Below are positions 2,802 through 51,909 of a DNA stretch of 64,000 bases, in pieces. How positions within the stretch are numbered: the stretch's first letter is position 1; each line of letters begins with the position of its first letter. The notes under the pieces were generated by a model. That model saw nothing but the letters and a program-made list of their open reading frames with translations. It did not search any database and was not told the DNA's origin. The position numbers and the translations under genes were made by a program. The stretch comes from Escherichia phage EcSzw_1: the sequence record MH791413.1; one strand, given 5' to 3'.

Positions 2802-5036
2802 TTAAACTCCACAACCTTCACAGTAAGCATCTTGAAGTGCTGACTTACCAACACCAATACGACTGTTAAGGTAGTACATAGTTTTCATACCAACTGAGTT
2901 AGCATAAATCATGTACTTCAAAGCTTGCTCTAATGATACCTTTTTCGATTTTGAATAGTCAACATAGAAATCTGAAGAGATAGCTTGACCAGTGAATTTT
3001 TGAACAATTGCATAGCAATCAATCATGTCAAAGGTGTCAATATCCCAAGCAATTTCATAGACATACTTCAATTCTTCGTAATCTGGAACGATGAACAGGA
3101 CGTTACCAGTAGCTGACTTCTTGGTTAAGATGAAGTCACGAATTGGGTACAATCCGTTTGTCGTATTAGTTGCCAGTGAAGAACTCTCGTTAGGCATGTA
3201 AGCCTCAAGTACAGAGTTTCTAATACCACTGTTTGCTTTAATACGGTCTGCTAAGTCATCCCAATCATAACGAAGTTTTGCATCGTGTTTTGTATCAATC
3301 TTCCTGTTAGCTGTCTTCGGAGGAACCCAACCTTCAGGATACTTGGTGAACTTCATATATTCAGGTACACCACGTTCTTTTGCAAGTCTTAATGAAGCCT
3401 CATGCAGATAGTAAGAGTGCATCTCTGCGAGTTCATGTAGCTTCGTTTTACCTGCTCTTGAAGAGTAGTTCACGTAGTTCTTCGCAAGGTAATGAGCCAC
3501 ATTCGTAAGACCAATCCCAACAGAACGACGTTTCTGAACGTGGTTACGCATTGACGGATACGGATAGTCCATAAGGTCAATAACGGAGTCAACCATTGCA
3601 AGAGCATAATAAGCAACGTCAGCGTATTCATCTTCTGTGATTCTCCCTGCTACCAGACTAGCCAAGAAGCAAAGAGCAACTTCACCATCTTCTTTAGGTG
3701 CTGTGTAACTGTAAAGGTCACGTTCATCTTCGAATCCGTGAACTGGCAATACAATTTCCATACACAAGTTAGACATTTTCAAAGGTTCTTTAAACGGCGT
3801 GTGAGTGTTAGCATTGTTCGTAAAGAACGGGTACACACGGCCTGTAGCATAACGTTGCTGGATGAACAGCTTGGCAACTTCACGAGCCTTAACACGTTTA
3901 TGCTTAACACCTGAATGAACTGCGTGACCAACTGCCATAGCAAACTCATCAGCAGATGCTGTGTAGAACATGTCATAAAGTTTTGGAGCGTCCTTGTAAG
4001 AGAACAGCAACCAATCTGTATCGTACTGCACACACTGCCAGAAATAGTCATTTGCACCAAATGAATAATCCATCTCATTAATACGCTTAGAAGGAACCGT
4101 TGTAGGGTGCTTCAAACGCAGTAAATCTTCAATCTGCGGGTCTATGGCAGTGTAGAAGTTGTTAGCTGAACCACCACGACTCTTCTGCTTATTGGCCTCT
4201 ACAGCAGCACGTACAAGCTTGTAATAAGGTAGTTTACCCATGTGTTCAATGGTGTTTTGACGAATACCATCACCAATTGTACGGGTCTCCATCAGCATAC
4301 CAATGCCAGCTTGCTTCGTGGTCATATCATAAGCTACCTTAGTAGCAATGCCAAGAGACTCAGCAGTATCATTAGCTTTGATTAAGCAGCATGACGCATA
4401 ACCTGACTTAGTAGCACGTAAACCATTCAGATAAGGCGTAGGAGCGTTAATCTTCAGGTCAGACAGGTAAGTGTACAGTTTGATAACATCTTCCAGTCTA
4501 CGGTGCTTAGGTTGTCTCTCAAAGGCTTTCATAGCCATACCCATAAACATAAATTGTGGAGACTCAAACAGACGACCTGACTTGATATCTCGGATACCGT
4601 ATTTGTCACGGAACTGTTTCAGTACTGCATAACCGTAAGAGATATCTTTTGAGTGAACAATGTGACCTTGTAAATAGTCAATCTCTTGTTCAGTGTAATC
4701 CATGTGTTCCCACAAACCCATCTGCTCCATTTTCATAACGAAGTTAAACAGTTGAGGAACTTTTGTGAAACCACCAAAGGCTTCTTTGTAGATGATGCCA
4801 AGAAGTAATCGACCAGCCATATCAGAGTATTCTTGAGTCTGCTTATCAATACAAACGTCAATCATAGCTTGGTGCATCTCTTTGGTAGAGCAACCTTCAT
4901 AGACACGCTTCATAGCTTCCATAGTTACTTCTGACCAAATGATTCCTCGTTTGTCAGCCCATGAAGCCCATTTGTTTAAACGTTCTGGTTCGAATGGTAC
5001 GATTGTACCGTCAGATTTGCGAATGGTCTTAATCAT
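2802..5036 (-). CDS. nrdA: Ribonucleotide reductase class Ia large subunit
   Basis: 744 aa; N-terminal ATP-cone (IRKSDGTIVPFEPERL), size and C-terminal Cys pair typical of NrdA. Confidence 0.85.
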   Translation of the reverse strand: MIKTIRKSDGTIVPFEPERLNKWASWADKRGIIWSEVTMEAMKRVYEGCSTKEMHQAMIDVCIDKQTQEYSDMAGRLLLGIIYKEAFGGFTKVPQLFNFVMKMEQMGLWEHMDYTEQEIDYLQGHIVHSKDISYGYAVLKQFRDKYGIRDIKSGRLFESPQFMFMGMAMKAFERQPKHRRLEDVIKLYTYLSDLKINAPTPYLNGLRATKSGYASCCLIKANDTAESLGIATKVAYDMTTKQAGIGMLMETRTIGDGIRQNTIEHMGKLPYYKLVRAAVEANKQKSRGGSANNFYTAIDPQIEDLLRLKHPTTVPSKRINEMDYSFGANDYFWQCVQYDTDWLLFSYKDAPKLYDMFYTASADEFAMAVGHAVHSGVKHKRVKAREVAKLFIQQRYATGRVYPFFTNNANTHTPFKEPLKMSNLCMEIVLPVHGFEDERDLYSYTAPKEDGEVALCFLASLVAGRITEDEYADVAYYALAMVDSVIDLMDYPYPSMRNHVQKRRSVGIGLTNVAHYLAKNYVNYSSRAGKTKLHELAEMHSYYLHEASLRLAKERGVPEYMKFTKYPEGWVPPKTANRKIDTKHDAKLRYDWDDLADRIKANSGIRNSVLEAYMPNESSSLATNTTNGLYPIRDFILTKKSATGNVLFIVPDYEELKYVYEIAWDIDTFDMIDCYAIVQKFTGQAISSDFYVDYSKSKKVSLEQALKYMIYANSVGMKTMYYLNSRIGVGKSALQDAYCEGCGV

Positions 5037-5424: not shown

Positions 5425-5740
5425 GATATTTATCCAAGTTTCGTTTCAGGTAAAGCCACCCATCATCAGTGCGTTCAACACCCATGAACAGTGGAGCCGT
5501 TACAACCTTTCCAAACGTATTACGATGCTGACAAATCTCATAAGAATACGTTTTCTCAATGTCCAGGCCATATTTGAAAAGAACTGCTTTCAAGACCTGT
5601 TCATTATCCAGTAAAGTTTCTGGTGTCTCTCCATATTTTGCTAACAGTGAATCACTCATAAACACTGTCATAGAGAGATTATAGTTTGAGAAATGGCTCT
5701 TTGGAGCCACCTCTTCAGTATTAATGTTCTGTGAATCCAT
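5417..5740 (-). CDS. Hypothetical protein
   Basis: ORF-track start at 5749 is TTG; first ATG at 5740. Confidence 0.45.
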   Translation of the reverse strand: MDSQNINTEEVAPKSHFSNYNLSMTVFMSDSLLAKYGETPETLLDNEQVLKAVLFKYGLDIEKTYSYEICQHRNTFGKVVTAPLFMGVERTDDGWLYLKRNLDKYHV

Positions 5741-6476
5741 TATAACCAACCCCTTTTAACCAATTCTTCAGGTTATTTGCATCATAGTTCAGTTTCGGGT
5801 ATGAGGTCACATGGAACTTCTCACCGTCATAGTAAACAATATCTGCAAGCCATAATCCGTTTTCTCGGCAGAAGTCTTTGTCTGCTTTTGAACTGATTGG
5901 TCGAACTTCTGTGAAGTCACTCAATCCAAGGTCTTTCAAACTTCCTACAAGACCTTTACAGATAACGCATGTGTCAGATGTTACCACGAATAATTCTTTG
6001 CTTTCAAGTTCCGCAATGAACTCTGCAAGCTGTACTTTAGGAAGATTAGACTGCTTCATAACCTTCTTATCAGACTCACGGATAATGGCGTACCATTCTT
6101 TTCCATCAATCATTGAGGCACGTACATGACATTCATCACCAGTATACTTCTCGATATCTGCAAGACGCTTCAAAGCTTCTTCGTAGTTATCGGTATACTT
6201 CAGGTTGTTATTCTCACAGACTGCTTTCATAGCTCCGTCATGGTCATGCTGTGAAAGGTAAATCAGTCCATCAAGAACATACTGTAAATCCGCCTGAGCA
6301 TCAAGAGCCTCAATAGGGTCTTTTTCATCAACAGCTTTTAAAAGCTCTTTGGCCTCTTCTAACATACAAAGTGCTTGGCTACGCATTGAAGACCAGTACT
6401 CAGGTGTATAAGGAGTCAACGGGGTTTTACCACAACGCTGATTCCAAGTTAAAACGGATTCTCTGGAATTAAACAT
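5721..6476 (-). CDS. Hypothetical protein, possible MazG-like NTP pyrophosphatase with C-terminal CxxC domain
   Basis: 251 aa; helical acidic N-terminus (EEAKELLKAVDE...), VVTSDTCVICKG motif; assignment tentative. Confidence 0.4.
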   Translation of the reverse strand: MFNSRESVLTWNQRCGKTPLTPYTPEYWSSMRSQALCMLEEAKELLKAVDEKDPIEALDAQADLQYVLDGLIYLSQHDHDGAMKAVCENNNLKYTDNYEEALKRLADIEKYTGDECHVRASMIDGKEWYAIIRESDKKVMKQSNLPKVQLAEFIAELESKELFVVTSDTCVICKGLVGSLKDLGLSDFTEVRPISSKADKDFCRENGLWLADIVYYDGEKFHVTSYPKLNYDANNLKNWLKGVGYNGFTEH

Positions 6477-6703
6477 TAAACCTCCTGAAACAGTTTCTGC
6501 TGAGACTCAATATAATCCAGTCGGCCTTTCAGTTCAACACGTTTGTTAATCAGGTGCTGAATCTGGGACTCAAGAGCCTCCATTTCGGACTCCGTAGCTT
6601 CTTTAGCTTTGACAATTGCATCTTTCAGTGCTGCAATGTGACTGTCAATCTTAGCTACGTGGTCATTATTAATTTTGTTAAATATCATCTTATTCTCTCT
6701 CAT
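6476..6703 (-). CDS. Small coiled-coil protein, hypothetical
   Basis: 75-aa ORF. Confidence 0.4.
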   Translation of the reverse strand: MRENKMIFNKINNDHVAKIDSHIAALKDAIVKAKEATESEMEALESQIQHLINKRVELKGRLDYIESQQKLFQEV

Positions 6704-7190
6704 TAAGTTTCATGATTTTATGGATTCTCTTCTCAGCATCTTCATAAGTCTCTTTAGTCAGAAACTTGATTGCTGCAATGTTTGCATTGTAGAAGAGTCG
6801 AAGCTTGGAGTCAATCCTTTTTGTCATGACGTCAAACTTATGTTGAAGGTTAGCTTCTCCGTAGACCAACCCACCTCGCGTATAATAAGTTTGCACAATA
6901 TAGAAGTCAAACTCTTTTTCACCGAAAGTTTCAATATCTTTCTTAATGTACTCAGAAGAGGTCTGGTAAACCTTCCAGTCACTCTCTTTTGTCACAATCT
7001 TACGTCTGGTCTTTCCAGCTACTTTCTTCTTGGTGACATTGTTAAACTGCTTCTTACCCAAATAGTACTGTCCAGTCTTTTTGCAGTACACTAAGTAGAC
7101 AAACCCAAAGTATTTAGTTGGGTCAATTTCTCCACAAAGTGAAATCCAATGTCCATATTCAGGGCAATTACCAAAACCTTTAATCTTCAT
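6690..7190 (-). CDS. GIY-YIG family endonuclease (homing-endonuclease-like)
   Basis: 166 aa; N-terminal YFGFVYLVY...YYLGKK matches GIY-YIG pattern. Confidence 0.6.
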   Translation of the reverse strand: MKIKGFGNCPEYGHWISLCGEIDPTKYFGFVYLVYCKKTGQYYLGKKQFNNVTKKKVAGKTRRKIVTKESDWKVYQTSSEYIKKDIETFGEKEFDFYIVQTYYTRGGLVYGEANLQHKFDVMTKRIDSKLRLFYNANIAAIKFLTKETYEDAEKRIHKIMKLNERE

Positions 7191-47162: not shown

Positions 47163-47322
47163 AAGGAGAAACCACAATGTATGCCAGAGACATACTGTAT
47201 AAGCCTTCTTATAAAGTATACATCTGTAAAAAAGCCCTGTCTAAAAATACTCTTCGGTAGCGAAAGGAAGAATACTCGTAGCAGGGCGTTATTATTTTAT
47301 TTTGAGAGAGAGTAAAATAATT

Positions 47323-47398
47323 TGGAGCGTCGAAAGGGAGTCGAACCCTCATAATCCTGTTTTGCAGACAGGTACATAGCCATTTCTGTCATCGACGC
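47323..47398 (-). tRNA. tRNA-Cys (GCA)
   Basis: Hand-folded cloverleaf: acceptor GCGTCGA/TCGACGC, anticodon loop CTGCAAA, T-loop TTCGACT, CCA encoded. Confidence 0.75.
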
Positions 47399-47405
47399 AT
47401 TAAAT

Positions 47406-47498
47406 TGGAGGAAGATACCAGACTTGAACTGGTACGCCGATTTCTCGGTTACTGACAGTTTAGCAAACTGTTCCCTTACCTTTTAGGGTTAATCTTCC
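47406..47498 (-). tRNA. tRNA-Ser (GCT), class II
   Basis: 93 nt; acceptor GGAAGAT/ATCTTCC; anticodon loop TTGCTAA; long variable arm. Confidence 0.75.
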
Positions 47499-47500
47499 AA

Positions 47501-48235
47501 TTATTTGTTCAAGGCATCCTTCATTTCTGGAGTTGCAATTGAATCAATCACGCCAGTTTTACAAGCATCATCAAACCAGTCTGGTAAGACACCTGCAAGG
47601 AAACCATTAATATTCGTTTTCAAGTAATCAGCAATTAACGCTGCTTCATCTGCAATCATCTGAGTGACCTCATTAGTGTATGCAGTAATCTTAGCAATGC
47701 CCTGATTAATCGCTGTAACGGCTTGTGAGGCTAAGGAAGAGATAGTGTCTAGTCCTTTGTCGATTGCGTCTTTTAAGTCGCTTAGAATGCCATTCACAGT
47801 GTCTATGGAGGTGTTAATCAAATCCATAGCTTGTTGACCGTACTCTGTAGCTACTCCCATGATTCCACTAAACGGTGTACAACCAACTTGTTCTCCTGCT
47901 GCACCCATAACGTTAGAGTAACCTTTAGCTACCTGCATACGTGATGAGAACTCATCTACAGAAGTCTGACCGTATTGAGTCAGTGTGTTAGTTGTCGTTG
48001 TAGTGCTTCCAAGGCTCGTTGAGAAGCTACTTAACAAGGCTGTAGTCAAACCAGCAGCAATAAGTTTATCTTTTACTGTAGGGTCTGATACCGAGCTAAT
48101 AGAGCTTACTAATGAAGTAGAAGCGGCAATTGTGCCACCAAGGATTGCTGCACCAGTAATAAGGGGGTTGGAAAACCCGTTACCGGATTTCAGGAGATTA
48201 AAAATCTCTTTACCTTGTTCTGTCATCTCTTTCAT
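47501..48235 (-). CDS. Hypothetical Ser/Thr/Ala-rich protein inside tRNA array
   Basis: 244-aa ORF. Confidence 0.5.
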   Translation of the reverse strand: MKEMTEQGKEIFNLLKSGNGFSNPLITGAAILGGTIAASTSLVSSISSVSDPTVKDKLIAAGLTTALLSSFSTSLGSTTTTTNTLTQYGQTSVDEFSSRMQVAKGYSNVMGAAGEQVGCTPFSGIMGVATEYGQQAMDLINTSIDTVNGILSDLKDAIDKGLDTISSLASQAVTAINQGIAKITAYTNEVTQMIADEAALIADYLKTNINGFLAGVLPDWFDDACKTGVIDSIATPEMKDALNK

Positions 48236-48252
48236 TAAGCACCTTTTGAAAT

Positions 48253-48329
48253 TGGCGGGTTAGTGGGATTTGAACCCTCTTCTCATGTTTTTCAGACACG
48301 CGCTTTAACCATATAAGCTACTTAACCCA
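48253..48329 (-). tRNA. tRNA-Phe (GAA)
   Basis: Anticodon loop CTGAAAA; T-loop TTCAAAT; 3' register uncertain by 1 nt. Confidence 0.65.
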
Positions 48330-48336
48330 TTAAATT

Positions 48337-48413
48337 TGGGGTGACCTACGGGAATCGAACCCGTATAGACCATGTTCACAGCATGGGTCATTATCCATTT
48401 ATGATAAGGCCAC
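48337..48413 (-). tRNA. tRNA-His (GTG)
   Basis: Anticodon stem-loop CCATG-CTGTGAA-CATGG; T-loop TTCGATT. Confidence 0.7.
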
Positions 48414-48444
48414 ATGTAAGGACTCTCGTAAGAACCCTTAGAAG

Positions 48445-48520
48445 TGGCAGCAGCGTAAGGATTTGAACCTTAATCTTTCAGCTTCAGAGGCTGGAGCATT
48501 GCCAGTTATGCTACACTGCT
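48445..48520 (-). tRNA. tRNA-Gln (CTG)
   Basis: D stem GCAT/ATGC; anticodon loop CTCTGAA; T arm TAAGG-TTCAAAT-CCTTA. Confidence 0.65.
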
Positions 48521-48527
48521 ATTAATT

Positions 48528-48606
48528 TGGTACTCCATATCGGATTCGAACCGATACATAACACAGATTTTAAGTCTGGCCTCTCTGCCAATTGGAGTAA
48601 TGGAGC
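48528..48606 (-). tRNA. tRNA with Leu anticodon TAA but short (7-nt) variable region
   Basis: 79 nt; anticodon CAGA-CTTAAAA-TCTG; D loop AATTGGCAGAG; A73; no long variable arm. Confidence 0.55.
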
Positions 48607-48608
48607 AT

Positions 48609-48685
48609 TGGCGGGGGATGTTGGAATTGAACCAACTTCTTCGATTTCAAAGACCGAGGTTTTAACCTTGTAAACTAATCCCCTT
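48609..48685 (-). tRNA. tRNA-Gln (TTG)
   Basis: Anticodon stem-loop TCGGT-CTTTGAA-ATCGA; T arm GTTGG-TTCAATT-CCAAC. Confidence 0.65.
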
Positions 48686-48692
48686 TAAATCT

Positions 48693-49250
48693 TTACTTTC
48701 TTAGTGGATGAATAAAGAATGCCAACATAATTCTTTCCCTTGAGAATGCTCTTTCTTCTGGGACAACACTTTTAAGTTTCCATCCAACATAAATTCTCCA
48801 GTAAAACTGTTTACCAAAGACTTTAATTGATGGGATAAAAGCGAATAATCCCCAAGCATTACTATTCCACATTAGGAGATAACCTGTCTGATTATCTTCA
48901 GGGTTAGAACTTACGTTGATATTACCTTTCCACTTAGTAACATCTTTTACATCTCTTCCCAATACATGGTAAGAGAAGTTATAAGCTTTGTTTCTCCAGA
49001 GCCATCCAACTCTCTGCATATAAACACCGAGCTTGCCAATCTTTCGAATCTTAGCCCACCGTTCAACGTGACCTTTGTCACCGTCAATCGGGTTGTCATA
49101 AGTCTCCATCCATCTGAATCCAAAAGGCAAGTGACCTTTCTTCTCACTGTAGAATGGAACTACAAAGGGTGCTAAGATTACTGCTAAGATTGCTGCAAAT
49201 GGCTCTAGCAAAGCTAGGAAAATCCATGAAGCATACTTCAAATATCTCAT
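48693..49250 (-). CDS. Membrane protein, hypothetical, inside tRNA array
   Basis: 185 aa with N-terminal hydrophobic helices. Confidence 0.5.
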   Translation of the reverse strand: MRYLKYASWIFLALLEPFAAILAVILAPFVVPFYSEKKGHLPFGFRWMETYDNPIDGDKGHVERWAKIRKIGKLGVYMQRVGWLWRNKAYNFSYHVLGRDVKDVTKWKGNINVSSNPEDNQTGYLLMWNSNAWGLFAFIPSIKVFGKQFYWRIYVGWKLKSVVPEERAFSRERIMLAFFIHPLRK

Positions 49251-49269
49251 TTAAATAGCCTCTTTAAAT

Positions 49270-49346
49270 TGGTGCAGAATAAGGGATTCGAACCCCTAAC
49301 AAACAACTTCGTAGGTTGCTGCTCTATCCATTTGAACTAATTCTGC
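49270..49346 (-). tRNA. tRNA-Arg (ACG)
   Basis: Acceptor GCAGAAT/ATTCTGC; anticodon loop CTACGAA; T-loop TTCGAAT. Confidence 0.7.
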
Positions 49347-49508
49347 AATGTTCTTTTGAGATTCCTGTCTAGCTCTCTTCTTATCTCTTCTGAGAAAGCG
49401 TCTACGATGGTCTGTACGCCACTTGTAGTAATCTTCTTCACCATCGTGAGAAGCACAGCAACCACAACTTGCAATTTCAACTTTACCGTGTCTACCATAA
49501 GGCTTCAT
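49296..49508 (-). CDS. Small Cys-rich basic protein, questionable (3' end overlaps tRNA-Arg)
   Basis: 70 aa with AGGAGA SD before ATG 49508, but last 50 nt overlap tRNA 49270..49346. Confidence 0.3.
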   Translation of the reverse strand: MKPYGRHGKVEIASCGCCASHDGEEDYYKWRTDHRRRFLRRDKKRARQESQKNIAELVQMDRAATYEVVC

Positions 49509-49524
49509 AGGAATCTCCTAAAAT

Positions 49525-49602
49525 TGGTGTTCCAAGACGGATTCGAACCGTCACTAATACAAGGTTTGAGCTTGCATCCTCTGCCAATTGGGATACTGGA
49601 AC
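49525..49602 (-). tRNA. tRNA with Leu anticodon CAA but short variable region
   Basis: 78 nt; anticodon GCAAG-CTCAAAC-CTTGT; D loop AATTGGCAGAGG; A73. Confidence 0.55.
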
Positions 49603-49604
49603 AT

Positions 49605-49679
49605 TGGTACTCGCTGAAGGACTTGAACCTTCTTCACCAACTTGTAAGGATGGGGCTTTACCGTATAAACTAAGCGAGT
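49605..49679 (-). tRNA. tRNA-Val (TAC)
   Basis: Acceptor ACTCGCT/AGCGAGT; anticodon loop CTTACAA; T arm GAAGG-TTCAAGT-CCTTC. Confidence 0.65.
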
Positions 49680-49775
49680 ATGAAAAGAGGTCTGAAGTTG
49701 TGCCGCTAACTCAACTCCGTGGAATTTGTTACGGTCTTCAGTTGACTCAAGCGGTCTTTCACTCGACCTCTGAAT
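49680..49775 (-). ncRNA. Structured non-tRNA spacer element (candidate small stable RNA)
   Basis: 96-nt gap between two tRNAs; nested inverted repeats GAGGTC/GACCTC, TGAAG/CTTCA, CCGT/ACGG; no T-loop. Confidence 0.3.
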
Positions 49776-49852
49776 TGGTGCTGCTCACAGGAGTTGAACC
49801 TGCATCTCCATCCTTACAAGGGATGTGTAATAGCCAATTATACGAAAGCAGC
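49776..49852 (-). tRNA. tRNA-Thr (TGT)
   Basis: Anticodon stem-loop CATCC-CTTGTAA-GGATG; T-loop TTCAACT. Confidence 0.7.
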
Positions 49853-49858
49853 ATTATT

Positions 49859-49933
49859 TGGAGCATCCAGAGGGAATCGAACCCTCAACCTCAGTTTGGA
49901 AGACTGTAATTTTCCCGTTTAAACTATGGATGC
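49859..49933 (-). tRNA. tRNA-Gly (TCC)
   Basis: Acceptor GCATCCA/TGGATGC; anticodon loop CTTCCAA; T arm GAGGG-TTCGATT-CCCTC. Confidence 0.7.
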
Positions 49934-49939
49934 ACTAAT

Positions 49940-50015
49940 TGGTGGAGAAGCAGGGAATTGAACCCTGTACTTAAGTTTGCAAAACTTATGTTTTAACCAT
50001 GTAAACTACATCCCC
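49940..50015 (-). tRNA. tRNA-Ala (TGC)
   Basis: Anticodon stem-loop TAAGT-TTTGCAA-ACTTA; T arm CAGGG-TTCAATT-CCCTG. Confidence 0.7.
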
Positions 50016-50021
50016 GATATT

Positions 50022-50097
50022 TGGTACAGGTGGAGGGAATTGAACCCATCGTCTTACTGATTAAGAGTCAGCCGCATAACCATTTTGCTACACCTGC
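50022..50097 (-). tRNA. tRNA-Lys (CTT)
   Basis: Anticodon GCTGA-CTCTTAA-TCAGT; T stem weak (GGG/CCC plus two mismatches). Confidence 0.55.
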
Positions 50098-50104
50098 ATT
50101 AATT

Positions 50105-50181
50105 TGGTACACCTAGAGAGAGTCGAACTCACACTGAACAGATTCTAAGTCTGCTGCCTCTTCCAATTGGGCTATAGGTGC
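50105..50181 (-). tRNA. tRNA with Leu anticodon TAG but short variable region
   Basis: 77 nt; anticodon GCAGA-CTTAGAA-TCTGT; D loop AATTGGAAGAGG; A73. Confidence 0.55.
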
Positions 50182-50182
50182 A

Positions 50183-50635
50183 TTAAATCAAATGTCTTGA
50201 GAATTGACTATGACAATTTGGACACAAGAATCTTAAGTTTTCTTTTCTATCGTCTAACCAGTTTTCGTTGATATGGTCAACATCAAGTGTTAGTGGTTTA
50301 CCTAACCATTCTGGTTGCTGTCCACACTTAGAGCATTTGTATTCAACACCAGAAGCTATTAAAGCCCTTCTAAGTTGTGTTGACCTTGCTCTTTCACCTG
50401 ATTCACGAAGAATCAAGATTTCTTCAGGCTTTCTTTTTGGTAAAGTTTTAACCTTACCTGCCTTTTGTCCAAGGAAATGAGAAGTATCTAACTCAAACTT
50501 CTCTATAACACGTTTCAAGTGTGACTGAGAACCACCTGCTGGTTTTCTTCCAAGCTTGATAAGTACTTCTCTAAATGATACTGATTCTTTCACTAAAGGT
50601 TCAAGAACCTCTTTAGTCAAACTTCTACGTGTCAT
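50183..50635 (-). CDS. HNH homing-type endonuclease
   Basis: C-terminal LDVDHINENWLDDRKENLRFLCPNCH; inside tRNA array. Confidence 0.7.
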   Translation of the reverse strand: MTRRSLTKEVLEPLVKESVSFREVLIKLGRKPAGGSQSHLKRVIEKFELDTSHFLGQKAGKVKTLPKRKPEEILILRESGERARSTQLRRALIASGVEYKCSKCGQQPEWLGKPLTLDVDHINENWLDDRKENLRFLCPNCHSQFSRHLI

Positions 50636-50893
50636 GTGTCAATCTCCCATTAAATCTTTGTAGAGAACTGCTAAGACGCCAAAGCAACAATGGTATCAAA
50701 TGCCTTAACAATTCTCTAAAAAGACCTAACTGGTCTTTGCATAGTCTTGTTTAATCCGGTGACTAGAACCTTTGGAGAGCTTGATATTATCTCTTCTCCG
50801 TGACACCTACTAGGTGCTTTACTGTGCGTGTACGACAATACACGAGGGAAACCGAACGCAACGACGAAGTAGCGCAGGTCTTAAATCTCATTA

Positions 50894-50983
50894 GGCGGTA
50901 GATAAAGGAGTCGAACCCTCACCGTATCACTACAATGGCAACAGTTTTCAAGACTGTTTGGCTTCCATTAGCCGCTATCTACC
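50894..50983 (-). tRNA. tRNA-Ser (TGA), class II
   Basis: Acceptor GGTAGAT/ATCTACC; anticodon ACAGT-CTTGAAA-ACTGT; long variable arm; 3' CCA not encoded. Confidence 0.65.
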
Positions 50984-50996
50984 CCTAATAAGACTT

Positions 50997-51079
50997 TGGC
51001 ATGGGACGGAGGATTCGAACCCCTTTGAGTAAGTTTTGGAGGCTTACGCTCATGCCTTAGAGTCTTAACATCGTCCCAT
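50997..51079 (-). tRNA. tRNA-Trp (CCA), atypical extended D region
   Basis: Acceptor ATGGGAC/GTCCCAT; anticodon loop CTCCAAA as in E. coli tRNA-Trp; T-loop TTCGAAT; D region about 7 nt longer than canonical. Confidence 0.5.
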
Positions 51080-51221
51080 ACTACAATTCGAAGCTTACCG
51101 TATTATCACAACACTGTAAAGCCCCTTCTCAGATTTTTTACATGTTCTGGAAAACATGAGATACAGACCACCTCCATACAGGAAGACCCGCTAAGGTCGT
51201 CTAAGTAATCTGCTAACTATT

Positions 51222-51289
51222 TGGCAGTCAAGGTAGGAGTCGAACCTACTTACTATCGAAGGTAGCTAACCTTCAGTAACTTTCCGACT
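51222..51289 (-). ncRNA. Degenerate tRNA-like element lacking a D arm
   Basis: 68 nt; canonical T arm GTAGG-TTCGACT-CCTAC and CCA; hairpin GAAGG-TTAGCTA-CCTTC; no D arm. Confidence 0.35.
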
Positions 51290-51348
51290 TTCGTACACCT
51301 GCTAACATGTATTCAGATGGCTTACTAGTGTTGTCTTGACCATTAAAC

Positions 51349-51425
51349 TGGCACACCCTACAGGACTCGAACCTGTAACTCAGTGCTTAGAAGGCACTTG
51401 CTCTATCCAATTGAACTAAGGGTGC
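51349..51425 (-). tRNA. tRNA-Arg (TCT)
   Basis: D arm GTTC-AATTGGATA-GAGC; anticodon AGTGC-CTTCTAA-GCACT; T arm ACAGG-TTCGAGT-CCTGT. Confidence 0.75.
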
Positions 51426-51675
51426 ATTCTTATCTTTAAAGGCTCTCTTAGAAAACCCTTAAAGATGCCCACATTATTAATCATACCGTGGGCGAGTACG
51501 CCAAATTCTTTGATGAGGGGTTGGAAGACCTCACTGGTGTTTAGCCTATTAAGCTACTGCCAGAAAAACATTATCGTTTGCATTTATTTTAGTTTGCAAA
51601 AATAGACGCTACGCTAACGAAAACTAAGGTTACTATAAAGTGGTCACATCTGAATGTCAACAACTTTATCAAATT

Positions 51676-51750
51676 TGGTAGTGGTAGCAGGAATCGAACC
51701 TGCGATGTTCGGTTATCAGCCGAGTGTTATGACCGTCTTAACTATACCAC
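51676..51750 (-). tRNA. tRNA-Ile (GAT)
   Basis: Anticodon loop CTGATAA; T arm GCAGG-TTCGATT-CCTGC. Confidence 0.7.
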
Positions 51751-51753
51751 CAT

Positions 51754-51830
51754 TGGAGGTTCAGATGGGATTCGAACCCACATTCATAGGGCTTATGAAA
51801 CCCTTGCATTACCTTATCTGCGACTGAACC
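51754..51830 (-). tRNA. tRNA-Met (CAT); could be initiator, elongator or Ile2
   Basis: Acceptor GGTTCAG/CTGAACC; anticodon AGGGT-TTCATAA-GCCCT with three G:C pairs; T-loop TTCGAAT. Confidence 0.65.
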
Positions 51831-51909
51831 ATAATAAGTTGCCCTTTGGAGAAGAGCTATTGAGTGGGTGTTTCCAGCCGCGCAGGTGTTCTTCAGTTAA
51901 GGGCGAATT

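Follow-up and report, generated by a model that had tools for sequence, protein, structure and literature searches.

Escherichia phage EcSzw_1, a Felix O1-like member of the Ounavirinae, carries three real tRNA-Leu genes that lack the long extra arm. These genes, with the anticodons UAA, CAA, and UAG, belong to class I tRNA-Leu, a widespread and little-discussed family of phages and some bacteria. To our knowledge, textbooks and reviews present bacterial tRNA-Leu as always being class II. [quoted passage not shown]

The three genes and their array

The genes lie on the minus strand of the 64,000-nucleotide stretch analysed here (the window). A sequence-only reading of this DNA had left the strand unstated, and the ARAGORN calls are identical to the coordinates and anticodons (TAA, CAA, and TAG) it had given. 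tRNA-Leu(UAA) occupies positions 48528-48606 (79 nt, Rfam 47.5 bits), with its anticodon at 48570-48572 and the 7-nt variable loop GUUAUGU at 48556-48562. tRNA-Leu(CAA) occupies 49525-49602 (78 nt, 44.0 bits), with its anticodon at 49566-49568 and the 6-nt variable loop AUUAGU at 49553-49558. tRNA-Leu(UAG) occupies 50105-50181 (77 nt, 54.1 bits), with its anticodon at 50145-50147 and the 5-nt variable loop UCAGU at 50133-50137. The loops were delimited by a stem-anchored parse, which bears out the earlier description of 77-79 nt cloverleafs with variable regions of 5-7 nt; the long arm of class II is a stem-loop of at least 10 nt, and the variable region of class I measures 4-7 nt and is unable to form a helix. 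All three genes encode the CCA end and have U as the last variable base (U48), and the discriminator A73 that had been noted is present in each. The gathering score of the Rfam model (RF00005) is 29, and E-values in the ARAGORN and Rfam calls range from 1e-6 to 1e-9. When the covariance-model folds were checked for different anticodons, the Rfam alignments gave the same leucine anticodons as ARAGORN in all three cases. These alignments and the parse describe canonical cloverleafs with a 7-bp acceptor stem, 5-bp anticodon and T stems, a 7-nt anticodon loop with U33 (CUUAAAA in the UAA gene, with the A36-A37-A38 motif), and a T loop of the UUCRANY type (UUCGAAU or UUCGACU).

It is extremely improbable that the genes are prediction artefacts or pseudogenes. 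Such a reading could appeal to the GenBank record of the phage, which is flagged UNVERIFIED and has zero tRNAs annotated, and to single-sequence energy folding (MFE), which is unimpressive (z = -1.6, -1.8, and +0.1, not significant) and recovers the cloverleaf for two of the three genes. MFE folding is uninformative for AT-rich unmodified tRNAs, and reliance was therefore placed on covariance models and family covariation instead. Against this reading, ARAGORN and Rfam are two independent finders that agree, orthologues are annotated in many curated records, and covariation across the family is strong. Only two single mismatches interrupt the stems, C27·U43 in the anticodon stem of the UAA gene and U50·U64 in the T stem of the UAG gene. 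The invariant bases are present and the UAG gene is conserved, none of which is the mark of a pseudogene.

The array that houses the genes (47323-53128, minus strand) contains 26 callable tRNA genes, all on the same strand, as judged by ARAGORN, Rfam, and the annotation of the 95% identical phage mistaenkt, which supplied the context. Interspersed among the tRNAs are small ORFs and a gene for an HNH endonuclease (about 50190-50640), and sigma-70-like promoters are found near or in the array at 53185-53156 and 51660-51632. Clearly degenerate tRNA-like pieces are present in the array as well, and a tmRNA-like small RNA at ~51455-51625, near the tRNA-Leu genes, is possibly stranger than they are. 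With introns allowed, ARAGORN proposed a tRNA-Leu(tag) of 146 nt with a 68-nt intron at 51222-51367; because of its overlap with tRNA-Arg(UCU) and the lack of an Rfam hit, this candidate was rejected as an overlooked conventional tRNA-Leu. By eye, 51222-51341 is a tRNA-like piece, consisting of acceptor and T arm, with a large insertion.

Long variable arms do occur in the array, as had been reported. Two class II serine tRNAs are called on the minus strand by both ARAGORN and Rfam, tRNA-Ser(GCU) at 47406-47498 (93 nt) and tRNA-Ser(UGA) at 50894-50983 (90 nt). The class II tRNA-Tyr(GUA) at 52495-52582 (minus strand, 88 nt) is weak, being called by ARAGORN only at the relaxed threshold -ps90 and scoring 22.8 bits with Rfam. 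No further tRNA-Leu was called in the window or in the remaining 24 kb of the GenBank record, which extends the earlier statement that the array lacks a canonical class II tRNA-Leu. The short-armed trio thus constitutes the only tRNA-Leu genes of the phage, without a class II copy.

Membership of a class I tRNA-Leu family

The same trio of anticodons is found in E. coli leuZ (UAA), leuX (CAA), and leuW (UAG), and the phage genes align in register with these host genes. In the alignment, U8, A14, A15, G18, G19, A21, G22, A23, A73, and CCA do not vary, and a single large gap, of 8-10 nt, falls exactly at the variable arm. The D arm of the phage genes (consensus NNNC-AAUUGG(C/A)AG-ANNN) has a 3-bp stem with a 13·22 mismatch, A14, A15, G18G19 in register, and A20a, within an 18-nt D region. 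The three host genes have a D loop of equal length and near-identical sequence, and they share the 3-bp D stem with its 13·22 mismatch, A15/U48, G18G19, A73, and CCA. The Leu-like D loop that had been described is therefore present in all three phage genes, but the exact letters are not, as the UAG gene reads AAUUGGAAG and not ...GGCAG. The host genes differ in their length of 85-87 nt, their stem-loop variable arm of 13-15 nt, and their G9/G12/G13 or A13, as opposed to the 5-7 nt variable loops and A9/C12/C13 of the phage genes. G9 and G12 are found in 37 of 39 class II tRNA-Leu sampled, whereas the phage genes have A9 and C12 and represent the major A9/C12/C13·A22 subtype of class I tRNA-Leu. 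A short variable loop is also typical of animal mitochondrial type I tRNA-Leu(UUR), whose identity is set by A73 and A14. This tRNA has degenerate D and T loops without the G18G19-Ψ55C56 elbow and a dedicated mitochondrial LeuRS; the canonical G18G19 and UUCGAAU/UUCGACU T loops of the phage genes set them apart from it.

Covariation further supports the family. Across 72 diverse viral class I tRNA-Leu, pairing holds in 98.6% of stem cells and all 20 pairs have changes on both sides; the covariation score is 1.08, compared to 0.24 when shuffled and at most 0.19 with the partners slid. A class I Leu covariance model (R1), built from viral members that share less than 85% identity with the window, gives 80.6 bits for the UAG gene, the best of the whole search, 74.2 bits for the UAA gene, and 72.6 bits for the CAA gene. 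The best other tRNA in the window reaches 56.8 bits and the E. coli class II tRNA-Leu 56.6-61.6 bits, and the gap between the trio and all 23 other tRNAs of the array is about 16 bits.

As LeuRS ignores the anticodon, the anticodon alone is no proof of leucine identity, and the genes could be class I tRNAs of another amino acid that carry leucine anticodons and place a different residue at leucine codons. The isotype scores published for phage Sf14 lend this idea something, as the runners-up for the UAG orthologue are close (Ile2 65.7 and Lys 63.4, against Leu 67.4; PMC12482277). Nevertheless, such an identity switch is very improbable. In the same tRNAscan-SE comparison, Leu is the top isotype for the orthologues of all three genes (67.4, 49.1, and 60.2; PMC12482277). 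The Leu-specific D arm (3-bp stem, 13·22 mismatch, AAUUGGNAG), A73, and U48 match E. coli tRNA-Leu position by position, the nearest tRNAs in the window to each gene are the other Leu genes, and R1 separates the trio from every other tRNA of the array. Moreover, about 8% of all codons would be recoded, which would be lethal.

Class I tRNA-Leu genes are common among viruses, making up 14 of the 48 tRNA-Leu genes (about 29%) in a Leu-neutral sample of viral contigs. Cultured phages that carry them infect Proteobacteria, Firmicutes, Actinobacteria, and cyanobacteria. Bacterial tRNA arrays hold them too, with two to five in each of the arrays of 19-34 tRNAs, and actinobacterial chromosomes have a class I tRNA-Leu(UAA). 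The variable loop measures 5 nt in 122, 6 nt in 23, and 7 nt in 5 of 150 class I sequences. A73 is present in 94% and U48 in 93% of sequences, and the 13·22 mismatch is retained in 98% of 128. Enterococcus phage EFDG1 has one class I and one class II tRNA-Leu. The notion that coliphage tRNA-Leu are all short was discarded, as the tRNA-Leu(UAG) of T5, whose record reports an anticodon-replacement test, is an 85-nt class II tRNA. The occurrence of class I tRNA-Leu in bacterial tRNA arrays and on actinobacterial chromosomes indicates that a long arm does not define bacterial tRNA-Leu as strictly as the sequence-only reading had taken it to do, and a type I tRNA-Leu was characterised in 2019 in Streptomyces coelicolor (PMC6614811).

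Within the Ounavirinae, phages Sf14, mistaenkt, Moogle, Michonne, and phiEa104 carry the same genes in the same array order, at 82-100% identity. Their orthologues, with no difference in substance, are annotated as tRNA-Leu of 76-78 nt (at 50-51 bits in phiEa104) in records that are silent on the missing arm. For the UAG gene, 321 phage records give a match, which spans 80% or more of the gene in 244 cases, and the gene is conserved in hundreds of Ounavirinae genomes from phages of Escherichia, Salmonella, Shigella, Citrobacter, and Erwinia. A blastn search of 5,426 complete E. coli genomes returned no match to the UAG gene at E <= 0.01, which is weak evidence because a 77-nt query in 28 Gb reaches significance only if nearly identical.

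The description of the trio as paralogous holds at the level of the family only. The mutual identity of the three genes (66-73%) is no closer than that to class I tRNA-Leu from unrelated phages and bacteria (up to 81%), and a recent duplication within the phage was rejected on these grounds. Similarly, the proposal of a compacted phage tRNA-Leu family is supported by every in-silico test as regards the family, which is, however, neither specific to phages nor compacted inside this phage. The phage instead appears to have inherited the short form from an ancient class I lineage that moves horizontally, has a remodelled core (A9, C12, C13·A22), and is represented in many phages, bacterial tRNA arrays, and Actinobacteria. 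The existence of A9/C12 and G9/G12 subtypes suggests that class I tRNA-Leu arose at least twice.

The family has received little comment. The paper on the tRNAs of Sf14 makes no remark on the missing arm, and the word "variable" is absent from it (PMC12482277). The short variable loop of a tRNA-Leu(TAG) in Mycobacterium mucogenicum/phocaicum is mentioned in one sentence (PMC6582537). This gene lies in a dense, probably mobile multi-tRNA cluster beside a normal long-arm chromosomal tRNA-Leu (PMC6582537). In cyanobacteria and Acidobacteria, long tRNA arrays likewise have short-loop tRNA-Leu in dense clusters. These arrays belong to bacterial chromosomes, whereas the present one belongs to a virulent myovirus. 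In a search of full-text phage-tRNA papers, a scope that leaves out most subscription journals, no statement was found that phage tRNA-Leu lack the arm.

Probable charging by leucyl-tRNA synthetase

A route by which these genes would yield leucyl-tRNA can be proposed. The array would be transcribed from the minus strand and its tRNAs excised by host tRNA-processing enzymes. Host LeuRS would then charge the phage tRNA-Leu by reading A73 and the corner formed by the D and T loops (U8-A14, A15-U48, G18G19, and A20a), all of which are present in the genes, and would read neither the anticodon nor the extra arm. The identity elements for E. coli LeuRS are A73, A15-U48, G18G19, and A20a, with the sequence and fold of the arm being irrelevant (PMC9976931). 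Since LeuRS works without the arm, its loss is tolerated in leucine tRNAs but not in serine tRNAs or, in bacteria, tyrosine tRNAs, which would account for Leu being the only short family in this array. Engineered E. coli tRNA-Leu constructs without the arm (Asahara 1993, 1998; Tocchini-Valentini 2000; Larkin 2002) are still charged and need A73 and the D/T corner but not the arm (summarised in PMC9976931). The phage genes resemble natural versions of these constructs, which were derived from class II sequences; the phage genes constitute a natural lineage with a co-adapted core.

Phage-encoded charging was considered and set aside after a scan of the five longest of the ten window ORFs of at least 450 aa, which encode a DNA polymerase, tail fibre, tape measure, ribonucleotide reductase, and primase-helicase. 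As no LeuRS domain was found in these five, charging most likely relies on the host enzyme.

Among the closest known tRNAs is the type I tRNA-Leu(CAA) of S. coelicolor (PMC6614811), which has the class I shape of the phage genes. E. coli LeuRS, described as charging type II tRNA-Leu only, did not leucylate an in-vitro transcript of this tRNA (PMC6614811). Related class I tRNA-Leu(CAA) genes from other actinobacterial genera have a GCCC-AAUUGGCAG-AGGC D arm, A9, and A73, in common with the phage genes. If the S. coelicolor tRNA resembles these, the D arm and A73 alone may not suffice for charging. The two systems differ in that the S. coelicolor tRNA comes from the chromosome of a high-GC actinomycete with an adapted leucine-specific domain in its LeuRS, while the phage genes are carried by an E. 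coli-infecting phage as three isoacceptors with no class II copy.

The Streptomyces result (PMC6614811) is an argument for the view that enterobacterial LeuRS charges the transcribed tRNAs poorly or not at all, the tRNAs being passengers of a mobile cassette or non-decoding RNAs that serve as processing punctuation or decoys. The HNH homing endonuclease genes inside the array are consistent with the mobility of such a cassette, and the degenerate tRNA-like pieces elsewhere in the array fit this view as well. It is nonetheless quite unlikely. Stems, anticodon loop, T loop, A73, and CCA are intact in all three genes, the UAG gene is conserved across hundreds of Ounavirinae genomes, and the anticodons are complementary and not redundant copies. 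The charging of arm-less E. coli tRNA-Leu constructs (PMC9976931) also argues against it.

A different explanation is that absence of the arm was itself selected, so that the tRNAs act as back-ups which go unrecognised by host effectors that use the arm to single out class II tRNAs, allowing leucine decoding to survive an attack on, or the degradation of, host tRNA-Leu during infection. A preference for class II tRNAs is known among anti-phage and toxin nucleotidyltransferases. Type II tRNAs are also cut by human SLFN11, and Schlafen nucleases of bacteria take part in phage defence (PMC13056530). Phage tRNAs are known to escape anticodon nucleases by sequence changes (PMC10264068). Class I tRNA-Leu also appear to be enriched in mobile contexts, judging by their share of viral tRNA-Leu in the neutral sample and their presence in bacterial tRNA arrays. 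We consider this explanation unlikely, albeit the least so of the alternatives. We know of no effector that attacks E. coli tRNA-Leu by way of the arm, and none was found. The tRNA-Ser and tRNA-Tyr of the phage keep their arms, and just one of three class II families would thus be protected. In Actinobacteria, the same class I shape belongs to an ordinary chromosomal gene, for which defence escape is no obvious driver, and both T4 and T5 manage with class II tRNA-Leu. A broader form of the idea, slightly less likely again, makes arm loss an adaptive escape in shape: class I would be the tRNA-Leu of mobile elements, chargeable by ordinary LeuRS, including that of E. coli, and invisible to arm-reading effectors. 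Such effectors would include nucleotidyltransferases of the MenT or AbiEii type and nucleases of the Schlafen type. Chargeability by E. coli LeuRS runs contrary to the published type II-only view, and this path would be open to leucine alone among the class II families, as the arm is required by SerRS and by the TyrRS of bacteria.

Predicted leucine decoding and significance

Working class I tRNAs charged by host LeuRS, the preferred reading, would be suited to the codon usage of the phage. Leucine codons in the window are UUA (21%), UUG (17.5%), CUU (29%), CUC (5%), CUA (7.5%), and CUG (20%), so that codons other than CUG make up about 80%. E. coli prefers CUG, and the other leucine codons are served there by minor tRNAs. 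The UAA tRNA is predicted to decode UUA and UUG, the CAA tRNA UUG, and the UAG tRNA CUA, CUG, and CUU. Coverage of all six leucine codons, as had been claimed, depends on what is inferred for U34 wobble and is doubtful for CUC. The phage tRNAs may thereby serve the non-CUG codons that minor E. coli tRNAs read, and the evidence for such a codon-compensation benefit is a correlation only. In Sf14, codon compensation fits only some of the tRNAs (PMC12482277).

The only bacterial class I tRNA-Leu to have been studied biochemically is presented as a Streptomyces rarity that E. coli LeuRS is unable to charge (PMC6614811). In the present case, a class I trio supplies all tRNA-Leu genes of a group of phages with E. 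coli, Salmonella, Shigella, Citrobacter, and Erwinia as hosts, and about three in ten sampled viral tRNA-Leu genes share the short-armed shape. If these tRNAs are charged, as their conservation suggests, the substrate limits of enterobacterial LeuRS would need revision, the genes would provide natural compact tRNA-Leu scaffolds of interest for genetic-code engineering, and the short arm would be a simple marker for the phage origin of bacterial tRNA arrays. Should charging fail, three elaborate RNAs that resemble tRNAs but do not decode would be conserved in hundreds of phages, an even stranger outcome.

Three tRNA-Leu genes with short variable loops

The window carries three minus-strand tRNA-Leu genes of class I form, that is, with a short variable loop instead of the long variable arm of class II tRNAs. 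ARAGORN calls tRNA-Leu(UAA) at 48528-48606 (79 nt), tRNA-Leu(CAA) at 49525-49602 (78 nt) and tRNA-Leu(UAG) at 50105-50181 (77 nt), each with an encoded CCA. The general Rfam tRNA model (gathering score 29 bits) scores them at 47.5, 44.0 and 54.1 bits, respectively, and puts the same anticodons in the loop. A stem-anchored parse yields the variable regions GUUAUGU (7 nt), AUUAGU (6 nt) and UCAGU (5 nt), with U at the last variable position and A73 in all three. Long arms are retained in both tRNA-Ser genes (93 and 90 nt) and the tRNA-Tyr gene (88 nt) of the array. An earlier sequence-only reading had described these short variable regions and A73, as well as the long-armed Ser and Tyr tRNAs; its coordinates are matched exactly by ARAGORN and its anticodons recur in both placements. 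It was correct in all checkable detail, its only slips being the strand, which it left unstated, and the D loop that it gave for all three genes, as the UAG gene has AAUUGGAAG instead of AAUUGGCAG.

The tRNA region (47300-53200, 5.9 kb) is 100% identical to Escherichia phage EcSzw-2 (MH791400.1), the GenBank record of which is flagged UNVERIFIED and has none of its tRNAs annotated, and 95-97% identical to phages mistaenkt, SUSP1/SUSP2 and CHB7; a total of 358 phage records match it. These named phages belong to genus Suspvirus (Felix O1-like myoviruses, subfamily Ounavirinae), and relatives carry the annotation "tRNA-Leu (x3)". The array itself (47323-53128) lies entirely on the minus strand and comprises 24 tRNA genes at the ARAGORN default, or 26 when the threshold is relaxed. 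Sigma-70-like promoters on the same strand lie at 53185-53156 and 51660-51632, their count being not above that in shuffled sequence. No further tRNA-Leu was called in the window (ARAGORN, default and relaxed), and no tRNA of any kind in the 24 kb of the EcSzw-2 record that lie outside it, which upholds the earlier statement that the array holds no class II tRNA-Leu. Other anticodons and a hidden long-arm tRNA-Leu, both named by that reading as grounds against it, were looked for and neither was found.

Several other features of the array were observed. An HNH homing-endonuclease gene (~50190-50640, minus) lies within it, directly upstream of tRNA-Leu(UAG), and in mistaenkt a second one takes the place of the tRNA-Tyr region (HNH coordinates there 3184-3636 and 5440-5868). 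Array content varies among near-identical phages, which is consistent with endonuclease-driven cassette exchange. The tRNA-Glu(UUC) gene at 52970-53044 (minus; Rfam 53.7 bits, called by ARAGORN at the relaxed threshold only) has the anticodon loop C-C-U-U-C-A-A, with C33 replacing the near-universal U33, and its orthologue in phage Sf14 has an ordinary CUUUCAA loop; C33 could reflect a genuine variant, a decaying gene or an error of the UNVERIFIED record. Three tRNA-like pieces, none of them a normal tRNA, are also present on the minus strand: 120 nt at 51222-51341, which has CCA, a good T arm and the acceptor stem GGUCAAG/CUUGACU, is interrupted internally by a large insertion and is miscalled as an intron-containing Leu(tag) by ARAGORN with introns allowed; ~83 nt at ~50997-51079, with CCA, a T stem of 4 bp and what looks like an 8-bp acceptor stem (AUGGGACG/CGUCCCAU); and a 64-nt Rfam tRNA match at 52182-52245 (30.6 bits). 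Pieces of this type are labelled tRNA-OTHER or Pseudo in relatives, and are comparable to the "tRNA-like stable RNAs" of T5.

Leucine identity and family membership

Aligned to host and phage tRNA-Leu, as the sequence-only reading had proposed, the three genes are in register with E. coli K-12 leuZ, leuX and leuW and a T5 tRNA-Leu, and the sole large gap (8-10 nt) falls exactly at the variable arm. U8, A14, A15, G18, G19, the D-loop-closing AGA, A73 and CCA are invariant in all seven sequences, and the D arm has tRNA-Leu architecture (3-bp stem, unpaired 13·22, 9-nt loop AAUUGGNAG). A 2023 review of tRNA identity names A73, the A15-U48 pair, G18G19 and A20a as the elements on which E. coli LeuRS depends; neither anticodon nor variable arm is used, and armless constructs are still charged (PMC9976931). 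All of these elements are found in the three window genes. The proposed comparison of isotype scores points the same way, as the isotype-specific tRNAscan-SE scores published in 2025 for the orthologues of the related phage Sf14 put Leu at the top for Leu_TAG (67.4), Leu_CAA (49.1) and Leu_TAA (60.2) (PMC12482277); the Sf14 tRNA-Leu(UAG) is 96% identical to the window gene.

The idea of a phage tRNA-Leu family is borne out, and selection on that family indicated, by 72 non-redundant viral class I tRNA-Leu, each less than 85% identical to the window genes. Standard pairs fill 98.6% of their stem cells (57% in shuffles), both-side changes occur in 20 of 20 pairs, and the covariation score is 1.08, compared with 0.24 in shuffles and at most 0.19 for slid partners. 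Position 13·22 is unpaired in 98% of 128 class I sequences (C·A 79%, G·A 13%). A covariance model built from the 72-sequence alignment identifies the three window genes as clear members, because their scores of 80.6 (UAG), 74.2 (UAA) and 72.6 bits (CAA) exceed those of the next window tRNA (56.8, an Arg) and of class II tRNA-Leu from E. coli (56.6-61.6). Identity among the three is 66-73% and reaches 81% to unrelated class I tRNA-Leu, ruling out recent duplication; they are old family members. Class I tRNA-Leu splits into a major flavour (A9/C12/C13·A22), comprising the window genes, actinobacterial genes and most array genes, and a minor flavour that retains class II-like G9/G12. This split suggests multiple losses of the arm and, in the major lineage, co-adaptation of the core.

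The record of Erwinia phage phiEa104, an Ounavirinae relative, labels two orthologues tRNA-Leu (50.3 and 51.5 bits). A gene annotated "tRNA-Undet" there scores 75.6 bits with the class I model, and an adjoining "tRNA-Pseudo" 52.5 bits (genes at 6779-6852 and 6617-6693); the former is probably a further gene of class I tRNA-Leu type with an anticodon not assignable by tRNAscan-SE.

A tmRNA-like small RNA

Between tRNA-Ile(GAU) and tRNA-Arg(UCU), directly downstream of the promoter-like site at 51660-51632 (TTGACA-17-TATAGT), lies a small RNA of ~165-190 nt (~51455-51625, minus). It contains a tmRNA-like tag frame, GCA AAC GAU AAU GUU UUU CUG GCA GUA GCU UAA (ANDNVFLAVA*, compared with ANDENYALAA in E. 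coli tmRNA), whose stop codon sits in a hairpin loop. Over its first ~45 nt the small RNA is antisense to E. coli ssrA ~nt 56-111 (PK1 end, resume codon and first tag codons), with a duplex energy of -27 kcal/mol, and -35 to -41 kcal/mol for homologues; 0-12 of 200 shuffles are as good. Matches occur in 622 phage records and 135 of 5,426 E. coli genomes, homologues being found in lambdoid HK633 (between PR' and the holin gene), Klebsiella siphophages, Agtrevirus and Schitoviridae, with tags such as ANEEMYLAVA, ANDNAYLAVA and ANDDVVLMAA; none is annotated in the records inspected (five phage, 12 E. coli). Covariation among five sequences is seen at nine of 32 consensus pairs. ARAGORN detects no tRNA-like domain, and Rfam tmRNA_permuted reaches only 24-35 bits, below its gathering score of 47. 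The phage tmRNAs listed in a 2014 census are confined to mycobacteriophages and Bacillus phage G. The small RNA may be an anti-tmRNA or tmRNA-mimic RNA.

Distribution and probable charging of the short form

A pattern that combines the D loop of tRNA-Leu with a Leu-type anticodon and the class I distance to the T loop matches at least 120 loci in IMG/VR viral contigs, in which ARAGORN calls at least 150 distinct class I tRNA-Leu that differ widely in GC content. In a sample drawn with a generic tRNA D-arm pattern, without selection on Leu, 14 tRNA-Leu were class I and 34 class II (~29% class I). Among cultured phages, the UAG gene aligns by blastn, over its full length and without gaps, with relatives that bear a tRNA-Leu annotation in phages of Mycobacterium, Streptomyces, Cronobacter, Enterobacter, Pseudomonas, Bacillus, Enterococcus, Lactobacillus, Acinetobacter and cyanobacteria. 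In Cronobacter phage CR9 a 75-nt tRNA-Leu adjoins long-arm Ser and Tyr, and Enterococcus phage EFDG1 has two tRNA-Leu (84 and 74 nt); T5 tRNA-Leu, unlike the window genes, is class II. The same pattern was applied to bacteria, one genome per species, and two groups appear among the matches listed: tRNA-Leu genes that stand alone in the chromosomes of Actinobacteria (Nocardia, Mycobacterium, Gordonia, Rhodococcus, Arthrobacter), most of them UAA, and arrays of 10-34 tRNAs with 2-5 class I tRNA-Leu each (cyanobacteria, Acidobacteria, Myxococcota). The RefSeq record of Salmonella phage FSL SP-058 annotates a tRNA-Arg and an 86-nt tRNA-Leu at 259-425, where the sequence is not tRNA-looking and ARAGORN calls no tRNA even at relaxed thresholds; this entry is probably a coordinate or annotation error.

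The three tRNAs would be transcribed together with the array, processed, charged by host LeuRS and used to decode leucine codons of the phage. Charging by the host enzyme is most likely, because no LeuRS is found among the largest ORFs of the window. In E. coli the main leucine codon is CUG. In 58 long ORFs of the window, leucine is encoded by UUA (21%), UUG (17.5%), CUU (29%), CUC (5%), CUA (7.5%) and CUG (20%), and the phage anticodons are those of the minor host isoacceptors leuZ, leuX and leuW, not of the abundant CAG species. The main obstacle to host charging is one report in which E. coli LeuRS failed on the S. coelicolor type I tRNA-Leu(CAA), assayed as a transcript, and is said to be an enzyme that "only charges type II" (PMC6614811). 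Against this, armless E. coli constructs are charged (PMC9976931), and the tRNA-Leu(UAG) gene is conserved across hundreds of enterobacterial phages. We consider it likely that the three genes are functional, host-charged tRNA-Leu.

Among the class II families, only Leu can shed the arm without losing its identity, which fits the pattern in the window array and in CR9. The short form could conceivably also have an advantage of its own, a "shape escape" from effectors that recognise class II tRNAs by the arm, since some toxin/abortive-infection nucleotidyltransferases are known to prefer class II tRNAs and phage defence also employs tRNA nucleases of the Schlafen type.

Many relatives already carry these genes annotated as tRNA-Leu. 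Short-loop bacterial tRNA-Leu is known from S. coelicolor (PMC6614811) and is mentioned in one sentence for a Mycobacterium tRNA cluster (PMC6582537). The literature searched, of incomplete coverage, yielded no mention of the missing arm in phage tRNA-Leu, including in the Sf14 study (PMC12482277), the eLife phage-tRNA paper and the viral-tRNA survey. The additions made here are that phages commonly show the trait, and that phages of a host whose LeuRS reportedly refuses such tRNAs are among them.
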